A stretch of DNA of 32,000 bases from Formosa sp. Hel1_33_131. Lineage in GTDB: Bacteria > Bacteroidota > Bacteroidia > Flavobacteriales > Flavobacteriaceae. A program made the translations under genes and the position numbers. The notes beneath the pieces are model-generated. The model saw nothing but the letters and a program-made list of their open reading frames with translations. It made no database searches and was not told the DNA's origin. The stretch is taken from contig NZ_CP017260.1 of the NCBI RefSeq assembly GCF_001735745.1, positions 2,070,001-2,102,000 of the forward strand, read 5' to 3'. Shown one piece after another: positions 2,072 to 16,178 of the stretch (within the stretch, counting starts at the first letter, position 1; each line of letters starts with the position of its first letter).

Positions 2072-2082
2072 TATTTTGTTAC

Positions 2083-2147
2083 GTCATTGTTCGTACAGCG
2101 CGGCAATCTGTTCAGCACAAGTTTTAGATTCAACAGATTACTTCGTC
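2083..2147. repeat. solo copy of the palindromic 'gtcattg...cggcaatctg / cagattacttcgtc' element
   Basis: gtcattgttcgtacagcgcggcaatctgtt ... aacagattacttcgtc sits directly after the parE stop. It belongs to the same family as the arrays at 9447-10688. Confidence 0.8.
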
Positions 2148-5613: not shown

Positions 5614-5655
5614 AAGAGACAAGAGTCAAGAGTCAAGAGTCAAGACTAAAAAAAG
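5614..5655 (+). repeat. heptad tract (agagtca x3 and relatives) in the 3' UTR of the FISUMP gene
   Basis: agagaca agagtca agagtca agagtca agactaa lies between the stop codon and the terminator. Confidence 0.75.
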
Positions 5656-5685
5656 ACTCAGCAGTCTTAAGTACTAAAATTAAAG

Positions 5686-5717
5686 ACCATCGCATTGAGT
5701 TGCGGTGGTTTTTGTTT
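5686..5717 (+). terminator. rho-independent terminator
   Basis: Stem accatcgca/tgcggtggt (one G-U pair, valid on the + strand) with loop ttgagt, followed by ttttgttt. Confidence 0.7.
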
Positions 5718-5721
5718 AAAA

Positions 5722-6030
5722 AGTATTAAGATGAAAGTGGAAAGTGGAAAGTGGAAAGTGGAAAGTTAAAAGTTAAAAGTGAAAAGTGAAAAGTGAAAAG
5801 TGAAGAGTTAAGAGTTATGAGTTAAAAGTTAAGAGTTAAAAGTGAAAAGTGAAAAGTGAAGAGTTAAGAGTTATGAGTTAAAAGTGAAGAGTTAAAAGTG
5901 AAGAGTTAAAAGTTAAGAGTTATGAGTTATGAGTTAAGAGTTACAAGACGTAAGACTAAAAAGTAATGAGTACTAAGTATTAAGTATTAAGAAAAAAGAG
6001 CATAGAGCATAGAAAATAGAAAAGAACACG
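5722..6030 (+). repeat. largest heptanucleotide array (purine-rich on + strand), about 44 units
   Basis: agtggaa x4, agttaaa x2, agtgaaa x3, agtgaag, agttaag, agttatg and so on. The register is kept for about 220 bp, then slips by 2 nt and continues as agtaatg agtacta agtatta x2 agagcat x2. Confidence 0.9.
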
Positions 6031-7402: not shown

Positions 7403-7493
7403 AGTGATGAGTGATGAGTGATGAGTGATGAGTGATGAGTGATGAGTGATGAGTGATGAGTGATGAGTTGTGAGTGAAAAGAAAATAGAACCT
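7403..7493 (+). repeat. heptad tract: 9 perfect agtgatg units plus 4 degenerate units, starting at the nucleotide after the stop codon
   Basis: The perfect units span 7403-7465. They are followed by agttgtg agtgaaa agaaaat agaacct. Confidence 0.95.
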
Positions 7494-7572
7494 GTCATTG
7501 CGAGATTTCCTGCCGAAGGTAGGTTTACCTACCGGTAGGTAGGCGCAGTGCGGCAATCTGTTTATTAGGAGT
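7494..7572. repeat. solo left arm of the palindromic element, carrying an inserted 16-bp perfect palindrome
   Basis: The arm reads gtcattgcgag ... gcagtgcggcaatctgtttattaggag. The insert contains tacctaccggtaggta at 7526-7541. Confidence 0.75.
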
Positions 7573-9298: not shown

Positions 9299-9446
9299 AT
9301 ACCCCAGCCCTTAGCGGTCTATTTTACAGCAACCTATAACCTCAAAATGTTATGTTTTTAAAAACCTTTACCAAACATTATGACCTACACCTATTACCCG
9401 CAGCCCATTCCAAAATACTGTTGGGAAATTTAATATGGAAGCCTTT

Positions 9447-9790
9447 TTGGGGCAAGCCAACGCTGCAATCCTACCTTCGGTAGGTAAGCTCATTAAAAGG
9501 ACTCGTAAGTGTTCAACAGATTACTTCGTCCTGCGTCCTCGTAATGACGGGAGTGTATTGTCATTGCGAACGAAGTGCGGCAATCTGTTTATAAGGAGTT
9601 GTATGTGTTCAACAGATTACTTCGTCCTGCATCCTCGTAATGACGGGAGTGTATTGTCATTGCGAACGAAGTGCGGCAATCTGTTTATTAGGAGTTCGAT
9701 GTTCAACAGATTACTTCGTCGTACCTCCTCGTAATGACGGGTGTGTATTGTCATTGCGAACGAAGTGCGGCAATCTATTTATAAAATCAA
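9447..9790. repeat. array of palindromic repeat units upstream of the GIY-YIG gene (about 3.5 units, period 84-96 bp)
   Basis: Left arms gtgtattgtcattgcgaacgaagtgcggcaatctg alternate with right arms cagattacttcgtc(c/g)t(g/a)c(g/c)tcctcgtaatgacggg. tcattgcgaa occurs at 9561, 9657 and 9741. Confidence 0.9.
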
Positions 9791-9795
9791 TAAAA

Positions 9796-10095
9796 ATGCA
9801 AAAATCACATGTATATTTTTTAACAAACAAGAATCATACGGTCATTTATATTGGTGTTACAAGCTATTTATTAAAACGAATCTACCAACACAAAACGAAA
9901 GTATATAAGGGCTTTACTTCCAGATACAATTGTGATCAACTGGTCTATGTTGAGGCTTTTGATAGTATTGTAGAAGCAATCGGTAGAGAGAAACAACTAA
10001 AAGCAGGAAACCGAAAACGTAAAGAAGCATTGATAAATTTAGAGAATCCAGATTGGTTGGATTTAAGTGAGGGTTGGGTGTTCTGTTTTGATTAA
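9796..10095 (+). CDS. small GIY-YIG nuclease-family protein (UPF0213-like)
   Basis: MQKSHVYFLTNKNHTVIYIGVTSYLLKRIYQHK...REKQLK..NRKRK..LI. The ORF-track frame extends upstream into repeat DNA, so the ATG at 9796 is taken as the start. Confidence 0.85.
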   Translation: MQKSHVYFLTNKNHTVIYIGVTSYLLKRIYQHKTKVYKGFTSRYNCDQLVYVEAFDSIVEAIGREKQLKAGNRKRKEALINLENPDWLDLSEGWVFCFD

Positions 10096-10098
10096 CGC

Positions 10099-10688
10099 GT
10101 GTATTGTCATTGCGTCTTTTGTGTATTGTCATTGCGAGCGCAGCGCGGCAATCTGTTCAAAAGGAGTTCGATGTTCAACAGATTACTTCGTCGTACCTCC
10201 TCGTAATGACGGGAGTGTATTGTCATTGCGAACGAAGTGCGGCAATCTGTTTATAAGGAGTTGTATGTGTTCAACAGATTACTTCGTCGTACCTCCTCGT
10301 AATGACGGGTGTGTATTGTCATTGCGAACGAAGTGCGGCAATCTGTTTATAAGGAGTTGTATGTGTTCAACAGATTACTTCGTCCTGCGTCCTCGTAATG
10401 ACGGGAGTGTATTGTCATTGCGAACGAAGTACGGCAATCTGTTCAAAAGTAGTTGTATGTGTTCAACAGATTACTTCGTCCTTCGTCCTCGTAATGACGG
10501 CAGTGTGTTACTTCGTCCTTCGTCCTCGTAATGACGGGAGTGTATTGTCATTGCGAACGAAGTGCGGCAATCTGTTCAAAAGTAGTTGTATGTGTTCAAC
10601 AGATTACTTCGTCGTACCTCCTCGTAATGACGGGAGTGTGTTACTTCGTCCTTCGTCCTCGTAATGACGGCAGTGTGTTACTTCGTCT
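10099..10688. repeat. array of palindromic repeat units downstream of the GIY-YIG gene (about 6 full and several partial units)
   Basis: Same arms as 9447-9790. Left arms are at about 10099, 10121, 10215, 10309, 10406 and 10540. Extra partial right arms (gttacttcgtccttcgtcctcgtaatgacgg) lie near 10505, 10639 and 10677. Confidence 0.9.
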
Positions 10689-10706
10689 TGGTTTTATCTC
10701 AAATTC

Positions 10707-10796
10707 CCGTTCCTTACACGAAACAGTACCTAGGTTACGTCAATGTGCCGTTTGTTACATGACGCTTTTAGGGGTCTGGTTTTATAGCTTTCTTTG
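10707..10796 (+). promoter_or_regulatory. triple direct-repeat upstream site (copy A5) plus -7-like box
   Basis: ccgttccttac at 10707, a degenerate acctaggttac at 10728, ccgtttgttac at 10748. tttctttg ends 38 nt after TTAC, the same box as in copy A4. Confidence 0.5.
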
Positions 10797-10959
10797 TTTA
10801 AGAAAATTAACATAAAAATTAACAAAATATAAATAAATTATTTCTTTTAACTCCATGGTTATAGAAAAGTTATATTAAGAAATAGACCAAAAGAGTGCTA
10901 GAATTAGAAATTATTTTGATGTAGTATAATAGTTAAATTTTAAACAGTATTAAGTTTTG

Positions 10960-11251: not shown

Positions 11252-11285
11252 AAGTGAACGCCACGCTAAAGCGTGGTAAATGGAG
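11252..11285 (-). repeat. inverted copy of the boundary hairpin (ttccatttaccacgctttagcgtggcgttcactt)
   Basis: The reverse complement matches 2671-2704 and the metG terminator core. On the minus strand a T-run follows it, so it would terminate leftward transcription coming out of the heptad array. Confidence 0.7.
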
Positions 11286-11575
11286 AAGTGAAAAATGGGA
11301 ATTAGTAAATGGAAAATGGAAAGTGAAAAGTTAATAATGGGAAGTGATGAAGATAAAAGTGAAAAATGGGAAGTAGTAAGCACAAAGTTAAAAGTTAAAA
11401 GTGAAAAATGGGAAGTAGTAAGCACAAAGTTAAAAGTTAAAAGTTAAAAGTGAAAAATGGGAAGTAGTAAGCACAAAGTTAAAAGTTAAAAGTTAAAAGT
11501 GAAAAATGGGAAGTAGTAAGTGGAAAGTTAAAAGTGGAATATGACTTAAGACGAAAAGGGACGTAGGACGTAAGA
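11286..11575 (+). repeat. heptanucleotide array with 42/49/49-bp higher-order repeats
   Basis: gtgaaaaatggg recurs at 11359, 11401, 11450 and 11499. The spacings are 6, 7 and 7 heptads, and the units differ by one agttaaa. Confidence 0.9.
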
Positions 11576-11702
11576 TGAATGCGTATTAAGGCTTACATGT
11601 CTGACCTTTTAAATAATAATAAAGTAATGAACCAGGGTTCAAGATTTTTCACTTTCCGCTTTCCACTTATCAGTTTTTTTCTATAGTTTTAAATTTTGTT
11701 GC

Positions 11703-14867: not shown

Positions 14868-14914
14868 GAATAAATTTTTAGTATATTTCGGGTCTGTAAC
14901 CAGAAATCAATTGA

Positions 14915-15187
14915 CATGAACCATCCATCACTAAAACTTGATACTCAATAAAAATGCTTAAAATGGATGCACCATGTGACCTTTGAAAAACAATAAATAG
15001 ATATACATGAACCATCCATTACTAAAATTTGATATTCAATAAAAATGCTTAAAATGGATGCACCATGTGACCTTTGAAAAACAATAAATAGATATACATG
15101 AACCATCCATCACTAAAACTTGATACTCAATAAAAATGCTTAAAATGGATGCACCATGTGACCTTTAAAAAACAATAAATAGATATA
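14915..15187 (+). repeat. 3 x 91-bp perfect-register tandem repeat abutting the start codon of the zinc-ribbon gene
   Basis: Units start at 14915, 15006 and 15097. Each begins catgaa, like the real start at 15188. The middle unit differs from both outer units by three C-to-T changes. Confidence 0.95.
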
Positions 15188-15188
15188 C

Positions 15189-15536
15189 ATGAAAAAGCAA
15201 TGCCCAGAGTGTAACGATCCAATTATTGGACGAACGGACAAGAAATTTTGTAGTGATGGCTGTCGCAATAGCTATAACAACCGTGTGAATAAAGACCAGA
15301 AAAACCTGATCCGAAATATCAACAACCGATTGCGAAAAAATTGGCGTATTCTGGAAGCTCTGAATCCGCATCAAAAAACAAAATCGACACGGGATAAACT
15401 TATTTCAGCAGGGTTTGACTTTAATTATTTCACCAGTATTTATACAACAAAGTCAGGGACGGTTTACTATTTTGTGTACGACCAAGGTTATTTGCCCTTA
15501 GAAAACCATTATTATGCGTTGGTGAAACGAGAATAG
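15189..15536 (+). CDS. zinc-ribbon protein of unknown function
   Basis: CPECN...17 aa...FCSDGCRNSYNN is a four-Cys motif at the N-terminus. The basic middle region suggests nucleic-acid binding. Confidence 0.7.
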   Translation: MKKQCPECNDPIIGRTDKKFCSDGCRNSYNNRVNKDQKNLIRNINNRLRKNWRILEALNPHQKTKSTRDKLISAGFDFNYFTSIYTTKSGTVYYFVYDQGYLPLENHYYALVKRE

Positions 15537-15656: not shown

Positions 15657-15728
15657 GTAATTTAATATCTTACTTAAAAGTTAAATTGGTTAATTTTGAA
15701 AAAACATCACATTCGTGATGTTTTTTTT
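15657..15728 (+). ncRNA. candidate small RNA B1 (about 72 nt)
   Basis: Variable 5' part, invariant aaaagttaaattggttaatttt, then a terminator aacatcac attc gtgatgtt + T8. Confidence 0.55.
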
Positions 15729-15748
15729 GTTTTAAAACGAACACACGT

Positions 15749-15839
15749 TCCGTTTATACATTAAATACGTCCGTTTATTACATGAATTGTCCGTTCGTTA
15801 CATAGTGATTGTAAGAACTGTAAAGGGTATGTATATTTG
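15749..15839 (+). promoter_or_regulatory. triple direct-repeat upstream site (copy B2) plus consensus -7 box
   Basis: ccgtttatac at 15749, ccgtttattac at 15771, ccgttcgttac at 15791. tatatttg ends 38 nt after TTAC. Confidence 0.6.
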
Positions 15840-15845
15840 AAGTGT

Positions 15846-15918
15846 ATAATATCTTTATATTATTAAAAGTTAAATTGGTTAATTTTGAAAAACACCACAT
15901 TCGTGGTGTTTTTTTTTT
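15846..15918 (+). ncRNA. candidate small RNA B2
   Basis: Same invariant core. The terminator acaccac attc gtggtgt shows a compensatory T-A to C-G change relative to B1. Confidence 0.55.
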
Positions 15919-15938
15919 CTTAAAAGCGAACACGCATT

Positions 15939-16028
15939 CCGTTTATACATTAAATACGCCCGTTTATTACGTTAAACGTCCGTTCGGTACATGACGGTTG
16001 TAAGAACTGTAAAGGTTATATATATTTG
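15939..16028 (+). promoter_or_regulatory. triple direct-repeat upstream site (copy B3) plus consensus -7 box
   Basis: ccgtttatac at 15939, ccgtttattac at 15960, ccgttcggtac at 15980. tatatttg ends 38 nt after the repeat. Confidence 0.6.
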
Positions 16029-16034
16029 GTGAAC

Positions 16035-16108
16035 GTAATATCTACTTATTACTAAAAAGTTAAATTGGTTAATTTTGGAAAAACACCACCCTCGTGGTGT
16101 TTTTTTTT
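16035..16108 (+). ncRNA. candidate small RNA B3
   Basis: Same invariant core. Terminator acaccac cctc gtggtgt + T9. Confidence 0.55.
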
Positions 16109-16178
16109 GCTTAAAAGCGAATGAAAAATCAACTTACTTTCAAAAAATCGATTACTTTTGAATCAAAATTTTATAAAA

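Follow-up and report, generated by a model that had tools for sequence, protein, structure and literature searches.

A putative Ssn-type GIY-YIG nuclease gene nested between arrays of its probable cognate repeats in Formosa sp. Hel1_33_131

Chenal et al. (2025, Nat Commun 16:2388, PMC11893778) redefined the Neisseria repeat as NTS (CGTCATTCCCGCGMAVGCGGGAATCYRG) and described SsnA, a 94-amino-acid (aa), single-domain GIY-YIG protein of CDD family cd10448, which binds the repeat only as single-stranded DNA (ssDNA) and cuts a few nucleotides (nt) 5′ of it. Cutting depends most on the 3 nt 5′ of the palindrome and is lost in the Y6A, Y17A, and E64A mutants; binding depends most on the C just 3′ of the palindrome. 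In the meningococcus, SsnA lowers transformation by NTS-bearing DNA. A survey of ssn homologue loci with a degenerate pattern for Ssn-related motifs (SRMs) found at least one repeat at 71% of loci and repeats on both sides at 42%, across phyla, and the Discussion of that paper likens the NTS-ssnA-NTS arrangement to insertion sequences (ISs) and to repetitive extragenic palindromes (REPs) with their RAYT transposases. Here we analyze a 32,000-nt stretch of Formosa sp. Hel1_33_131 ("the window"; NCBI RefSeq assembly GCF_001735745.1, contig NZ_CP017260.1, positions 2,070,001 to 2,102,000), in which a gene for a 99-aa GIY-YIG protein lies between two arrays of one palindromic repeat family. An initial annotation of this DNA proposed a REP/RAYT-like partnership of nuclease and repeats and knew of no earlier description of it; the Ssn/NTS paper of March 2025 describes that logic for the same GIY-YIG family, with the REP/RAYT comparison. 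The nuclease-repeat principle is already published, and the window locus is another Ssn/NTS member.

Di Nocera, De Gregorio, and Rocco (BMC Genomics 2013, PMC3733652) divided REPs into two superfamilies: GTAG-tagged REPs, which have a RAYT partner, and CGTC-tagged REPs, whose hosts include alphaproteobacteria, Neisseria (dRS3), Rickettsia, Chlorobi, and Bacteroidetes such as Gramella forsetii, and which were concluded to be without a dedicated enzyme. We found no citation of that paper in the text of the Ssn paper, and Bacteroidota are not discussed in the main text of the latter (PMC11893778).

We find it probable, at roughly 0.88 judging from sequence comparison, that the open reading frame (ORF) encodes an Ssn-family single-domain GIY-YIG ssDNA endonuclease and that the flanking arrays are its cognate, NTS-like SRMs. 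The arrays also fit the older CGTC-tagged REP superfamily. The gene is as follows.

9796..10095 (including the stop codon), + strand: ssn-type gene for a single-domain GIY-YIG nuclease of 99 aa, identified by its translation, Pfam match PF01541, identity to SsnA, and alignment

Residues 4 to 76 of the protein match the Pfam GIY-YIG domain PF01541 (E 2e-14), and its 99 aa hold no second domain. In pairwise BLASTP it is 48% identical (E 7e-26) to gonococcal SsnA, a 94-aa protein flanked by NTS that we took to be the SsnA orthologue, and it finds the Neisseria gonorrhoeae chromosome by tblastn at E 4e-16 (7.3-Gb database); the Ssn paper recognizes homologues at E < 1e-10 to SsnA, and the window protein lies within that limit. 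Y7, Y18, R28, H32, and E65 are invariant across 20 aligned sequences, which span four phyla. Y7, Y18, and E65 are the equivalents of catalytic Y6, Y17, and E64 of SsnA, so the loss of catalytic residues that the initial annotation had named as fatal to its proposal did not appear. The closest homologues, about 80% identical, are from Polaribacter, Algibacter, Kordia, Tenacibaculum, and other marine Flavobacteriaceae. The gene start at 9796 agrees with homologue N termini; a longer ORF (9640-10095) runs back into the repeats, and we rejected it as a gene together with ORFs 9435-9734, 10067-10531, 10398-10664, and 10531-10815, all of which are frames running through repeats, since homologues begin at the 9796 ATG.

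NCBIfam and PADLOC returned weak, sub-threshold matches only, the latter giving no assignment to a known defence system, and a group I intron endonuclease model scored 17 bits against a cutoff of 56. The nearest solved structure by sequence is BH0048 (PDB 1zg2; E 0.009). Like I-TevI-type homing enzymes and the UPF0213 proteins (YhbQ, BH0048), the window protein has the GIY-YIG catalytic fold; the homing enzymes differ in having an extra DNA-binding domain and in cutting duplex DNA, and for UPF0213 relatives we found no repeat partnership in the literature. Many homologues sit on contigs of only 500 to 1000 bp, which fits assembly breaks in flanking arrays; short-read assemblies therefore probably underreport both loci and repeat counts.

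The gene is nested between two arrays of one repeat family, as the initial annotation had described. In Tandem Repeats Finder, a 96-nt unit accounts for 9508-9784 (2.9 copies) and 10121-10506 (4.0 copies), and related copies with periods of 37 and 133 nt continue as far as 10688. Each unit consists of two inverted arms, A and B. Arm B is GTCATTGCGAACGAAGTGCGGCAATC (26 nt; pattern GTCATTGCG..GCAATC), with 8 copies, and arm A is GATTACTTCGTC-N5-TCCTCGTAATGAC (pattern GATTAC..CGTAATGAC), with 10 copies. These counts allow up to three mismatches; all copies lie on the + strand, and 100 dinucleotide-preserving shuffles give a chance expectation of zero. Upstream of the gene there are three A arms, three B arms, and a degenerate remnant (9460-9485); downstream there are five B arms, seven A arms, and partial copies. 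The features of the arrays, and the dispersed copies elsewhere in the window, are as follows.

9460..9507, + strand: degenerate start of the upstream array, including a spacer-like stretch, read directly and compared with the spacers of intact units
9460-9470, + strand: B-arm tail remnant acgctgcaatc inside the degenerate start
9470-9485, + strand: small hairpin cctaccttcggtagg inside the degenerate start
9508..9784, + strand: upstream array, 96-nt unit repeated 2.9 times (Tandem Repeats Finder, arm search)
9519-9548, 9615-9644, and 9709-9738, + strand: upstream A arms
9560-9585, 9656-9681, and 9750-9775, + strand: upstream B arms
10099..10114, + strand: truncated B-arm head gtgtattGTCATTGCG
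10121..10688, + strand: downstream array (Tandem Repeats Finder, arm search)
10128-10153, 10222-10247, 10318-10343, 10414-10439, and 10547-10572, + strand: downstream B arms
10181-10210, 10277-10306, 10373-10402, 10469-10498, 10506-10535, 10602-10631, and 10639-10668, + strand: downstream A arms
10676-10688, + strand: partial A arm of the downstream array
2082..2147, + strand: solo dimer remnant after parE, with B arm CGTCATTGTTCGTACAGCGCGGCAATC at 2082-2108, a spacer, and a partial A arm at 2134-2147
7494..7558, + strand: solo B arm before the esterase gene, with a 39-nt insertion (7505-7543) in its loop, then the usual spacer start tttattaggagtt

Two details in the initial annotation needed correction: the last upstream arm ends (9775) 20 nt, rather than 6 nt, before the ATG, and the downstream array opens with the truncated B head, 3 nt past the stop codon. 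The two dispersed copies that it had reported are real. The 39-nt insertion in the second of them contains its own small hairpin (cctacc...ggtagg), which is also present at 9470-9485 and may be a nested mini-element.

The ends of the arms are those of NTS: 5′ (C/T)GTCATT and 3′ AATCYR, with B arms reading tTGTCATT and the complement of A arms reading cCGTCATT. Their internal stem has 5 bp (ATTRC/GYAAT) and encloses a loop of 11 to 20 nt. We rejected a CRISPR-like array: what would be its "spacers", the stretches between arms, is conserved repeat sequence too. At Rfam gathering thresholds, a tRNA-Phe gene was the only match, with no RNA family over the repeats, and we found no relevant literature on the repeat sequence itself.

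The association of gene and repeats extends well beyond this window. We collected 79 genome loci with relatives of the gene, 10 kb on each side, and scored the strict tag GTCATTRCG and its complement. The tag lies within 500 nt of the gene at 57 of the 79 loci and on both sides at 43; its density within 500 nt is 49 times that beyond 1.5 kb, and the two bins adjoining the gene hold 126 and 113 tags, against a background of 0 to 8 per 250-nt bin. At most loci, the gene is preceded by an inverted (A-type) arm, whose end lies 21 to 24 nt from the start codon, and followed, 1 nt beyond the stop, by a forward (B-type) arm; this layout of inverted arm, gene, and forward arm is also present in Neisseria and Azospirillum. 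In the window this order is rearranged: a B arm lies on the upstream side and a truncated B arm on the downstream side. Dispersed units away from the gene are most often head-to-head B-loop-A dimers with outer ends GTCATT...AATGAC; single arms are also seen.

A tblastn search of a plasmid collection, which also includes some chromosomes, found homologues with 41 to 52% identity in Rhizobium, Sinorhizobium, Shinella, Sphingobium, Novosphingobium, Azospirillum, N. gonorrhoeae, Planktothrix, Aeromonas, Photobacterium, and Spirosoma. At all five loci that we read in other phyla or classes, the genome's own (C)GTCAT-tagged palindrome directly flanks the homologue.

Neisseria: CGTCATTCCCGCGCAGGCGGGAATC
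Azospirillum: CGTCATCCCCGCGAAGGCGGGGATCC, with the gene between sufB and sufC
Sinorhizobium meliloti: CGTCATCCTCGGGCTTGACCCGAGGATCC
Novosphingobium: CGTCGCCCCGTGCTTGACACGGGGC
Planktothrix: TGTCATTCTGAGTGAAACGAAGAATC

With the published biochemistry, the 57 of 79 loci, the 49-fold enrichment, and the lineage-specific palindromes at five of five other loci support the REPtron-like partnership that had been proposed. The S. meliloti locus (L082) also carries, at about 2650-2760 and some 240 to 340 nt upstream of the homologue, a fragment of the gene's 3′ end (gaatggaagatcgagctcatcgagaagttgaaccccgattggcgcgac...tggtga) between two tagged palindromes, which looks like the remnant of a second gene copy.

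A metagenome scan for the exact 26-nt B arm returned at least 119 stretches, of which we examined 80 loci (480 kb). Only 4 of the 80 encode an Ssn homologue: many repeats and few genes, as with REPs. These contigs (L085-L164) range from 30 to 65% GC and have unrelated flanks, which suggests that the same arm is common to very different organisms.

Thus, the window locus shares with the Ssn/NTS system of Neisseria meningitidis a single-domain GIY-YIG protein of about 94 to 99 aa, 48% identical and with the same catalytic Y, Y, and E; tagged palindromic repeats with the same 5′ and 3′ ends on both sides of the gene; and repeats in many dispersed copies with the gene in one or few. It differs in that NTS has an 8-bp stem and a 4-nt loop, whereas the window arms have a 5-bp stem and a long loop, and in that these arms form asymmetric dimers in long 96-nt tandem arrays that the SRM string misses. 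The arms resemble CGTC-tagged REPs in having an unpaired CGTC/TGTC tag at one end, a stem that starts with AT, a predominance of head-to-head dimers, and copies inside gene ends; they differ from them in stem (8 to 9 bp in CGTC REPs), loop (4 to 5 nt in CGTC REPs), and tail (CTG rather than CCA-like).

The short stem looks maintained, judging from how its bases covary. Among 550 arms, the variable R/Y pair of the stem is G-C in 328, A-T in 174, G.T in 32, and A.C in 12, so that 502 of 550 are Watson-Crick, although these figures overstate the number of independent events since repeat copies share descent. Cleaner covariation evidence is an orthologous site just upstream of the lhr gene, where the stem reads ATTGC/GCAAT, ATTAC/GTAAT, or ATTCC/GGAAT across genera. 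Forward arms at a locus are of one type and inverted arms of the other (16:0 in the window and 0:22 at L010, for example); each dimer is therefore asymmetric, joining an AT-type arm to a GC-type arm, and one G.T and one A.C are always part of the long pairing between arms. We tried arm type (cfg1, +GC/−AT, versus cfg2, +AT/−GC) as a tracker of the protein tree and rejected it: it is exclusive within a locus and patchy on the tree, and it simply reflects gene orientation relative to the asymmetric dimer.

The initial annotation had called the arms mutually complementary and able to pair with either neighbor in a ladder of alternative hairpins. The inverted pairing stands, with imperfect complementarity (one G.T, one A.C, and indels), and the ladder is correct because both doublet registers fold well as ssDNA (B-A, −15.9 kcal/mol, z score −3.3; A-B, −14.5 kcal/mol, z score −3.7).

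Several observations weigh against the assignment of gene and arrays to the Ssn system. Single arms are predicted to fold at only −2.8 and −2.0 kcal/mol, with z scores of about 0, no better than shuffles, compared with −8.9 kcal/mol for NTS; the stable single-strand structure is the inter-arm hairpin, which is duplex-like, and duplex DNA is not an Ssn substrate. The published SRM pattern, HGTCWYN(0-2)YYVSBRHN(0-5)WNVSBRGN(0-2)RNCYNB, matches none of the 18 arms flanking the gene; its only match in the window is the solo copy at 2082-2111, while in the control loci it matched 9 times in Neisseria and 4 times in Azospirillum. The Ssn enzymes assayed include none from flavobacteria, and the host is not known to undergo natural transformation, the process on which Ssn acts in Neisseria.

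For this organism, we infer enzyme activity, the place of cutting, and the physiological role by analogy with the tested enzymes of Neisseria, Neisseria elongata, Neisseria wadsworthii, and Wolbachia. Because the arms keep their GTCATT and AATC(Y)(R) ends, they include the positions reported as critical for cutting and binding. An arm in ssDNA would show the short palindrome ATTRC...GYAAT between the 5′ GTC tag and the 3′ C; the protein would bind this palindrome and cut a few nucleotides 5′ of the tag. B arms would give a cleavable reading on the + strand and A arms on the − strand, and neither double-stranded DNA nor RNA would be a substrate. The expected effect would be cutting of motif-bearing ssDNA, whether incoming DNA or replication and repair intermediates, with a modulation of recombination. 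The layout of repeat, gene, and repeat is IS-like, and the repeats are dispersed as solos and dimers; on the same model, the gene-adjacent arrays would change length by recombination between 96-nt units.

Gene and arms might go further and form an active selfish element, the nuclease spreading both the repeats and itself as a GIY-YIG counterpart of RAYT or IS200-IS605 enzymes acting on single-stranded hairpins, a hypothesis that the Ssn authors also raised (PMC11893778) and that would extend the Ssn assignment rather than replace it. The layout is indeed like that of an IS, in that inverted arms keep a fixed distance from the start and from the stop, dispersed solos and dimers are many, and genomic contexts are mostly unique among closer relatives. 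In addition, metagenome contig Ga0115563_1042605 (L088; region 1-760), whose encoded Ssn protein is identical to that of the window, carries two tandem ssn copies with 1.5 units between them and two units only downstream, followed by a different neighbor gene. The system as a whole resembles REP/RAYT: short palindromes are arranged as inverted doublets and dispersed in hundreds of copies, the nuclease genes number one or few and have inverted repeats on their flanks, the hairpins are recognized in single-stranded form, and inheritance is mostly vertical. Against a selfish element, the site of the gene is shared between congeneric species (L001/L020, L021/L028, and L016/L030), which points to mostly vertical descent, and one clade is fixed in a conserved operon slot. 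GIY-YIG enzymes hydrolyze DNA without a covalent intermediate, and to our knowledge strand transfer has been shown for no Ssn. The nuclease is a GIY-YIG hydrolase as opposed to an HUH tyrosine transposase, its tag is GTC/CGTC as opposed to GTAG, and it is not known to transpose; among the window ORFs scanned we saw no transposase or Y1 (RAYT-type) gene. At shared sites, arm numbers differ (9 upstream and 8 downstream at L021 versus 11 and 5 at L028; 1 and 1 at L016 versus 2 and 3 at L030). All of this fits an element that is mostly vertically inherited, with arrays expanding and contracting and with occasional duplication or relocation. The locus comparisons give no demonstration that the nuclease itself moves the element, and the RAYT-like transposition of repeats implied earlier does not hold up as stated, either from these data or from the literature, where the demonstrated activity is confined to binding and cutting of ssDNA. 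We therefore regard a self-spreading element as unlikely.

A free-standing homing endonuclease that cuts a duplex arm-arm junction and is copied in by repair, with the repeats as homing sites, would account for the position of the gene exactly at the junction of an A and a B arm in most loci, given that gene-less units have 0 to 11 nt between arms. We consider this very improbable: the protein is a catalytic domain only, whereas known GIY-YIG homing enzymes have a separate DNA-binding domain, tested family members are inactive on duplex DNA, and the window gene, having a B arm upstream, does not itself occupy an A|B junction. A reading of the repeats as common intergenic hairpins (regulatory or terminator), or as RNA elements, that lie beside the gene by chance is harder still to believe. 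Repeats do occur far from any ssn-type gene, and they match no Rfam family; yet the 49-fold enrichment beside the gene over 79 loci, the different lineage-specific tagged palindrome at the homologue in each of five other lineages, and the expectation of zero arm copies by chance all argue otherwise. An Ssn-type nuclease with its cognate repeats thus remains our preferred reading.

A sister clade shows the gene in a different setting. At 15 Flavobacteriaceae loci, whose proteins are 56 to 63% identical to that of the window, the ssn homologue occupies one conserved operon slot, between genes for a cisplatin-damage-response ATP-dependent ligase and a DEXH (Lhr-type) helicase; the slot adjoins a ligase-associated exonuclease and PdeM, and the operon is the ligase-associated DNA-damage-response operon (TIGR04120-04123).

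L057, L058, L060-L063, L065-L068, L071, L072, L075, L076, and L078: sister-clade loci, gene at about 10001-10290 in most

Arm-like sequences at these loci are without the GTC tag (strict tag in 0 of 15). One of the arms falls within the 3′ end of the ligase gene, and a second directly adjoins the start codon of the helicase gene; three compensatory stem variants are seen across genera in the arm immediately 5′ of that codon. We found no mention of a ligase-Lhr context of ssn in the main text of the Ssn paper (PMC11893778). A flavobacterial branch that departs from the Neisseria prototype, either by split or inter-arm recognition or by recruitment of the ligase-Lhr clade into ssDNA repair, is a conjecture that we hold to be quite improbable; the idea of inter-arm recognition arises because the arm stems are too weak to fold alone and an AT-type arm is always paired with a GC-type arm. 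If true, either possibility would give the Ssn family a second recognition mode or a second cellular role.

The genes around the locus are ordinary chromosomal ones, among them parDE and genes for a thioredoxin-like protein, a SASA esterase, a LacI-type regulator, RhuM, and an M13 peptidase; a type IX secretion sorting tail is present on one protein encoded in the window. The window also holds a second dispersed repeat, unrelated to the arms and about 65 nt long, in five copies, all on the + strand, with the core TCCCGTTCCTTACAC-N13-16-TTACGTCAATGTGCCGTTTGTTACATG; one of them lies directly against the end of the downstream array of arms. This repeat could be a promoter or operator, or another small element.

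478-565, 1160-1250, 2355-2450, 2825-2920, and 10680-10775, + strand: copies of the second dispersed repeat, with another at 755-850 of L088

Long heptanucleotide tandem runs (of AGTGATG, AAAGTGA, TCACTTA, and TCTATTT, among others) occupy many intergenic gaps. They are similar to short tandem heptamers known from cyanobacteria and are unusual in a flavobacterium.

743-993, 2147-2359, 5614-6023, 7403-7477, and 11274-11668: heptanucleotide runs

Between the genes for the RhuM-like and TPR proteins lie two further tandem repeats, one of 91 nt repeated 3.1 times at 14914-15193 (96% match) and one of 189 nt repeated 2.4 times at 15665-16121 (86% match).

A tiny nuclease among hairpin repeats that it recognizes is by now an established principle, with value as a tool because site-specific cutting of ssDNA is rare. 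What this analysis adds is local: flavobacterial repeats of a form that the published pattern misses, their asymmetric dimers, their long arrays of 96-nt units, a clade in a repair operon, and an explicit link to the CGTC-tagged REPs. The pairing extends to marine Flavobacteriaceae, and since the SRM pattern misses their variant, the reported 71% association is probably an underestimate. The locus also helps to link Ssn repeats to the superfamily defined in 2013, whose partner enzyme had been an open question, a gap that the association with Ssn fills. With their short stem, long loop, and asymmetric dimers, the flavobacterial arms offer a natural variant for mapping what the enzyme reads.

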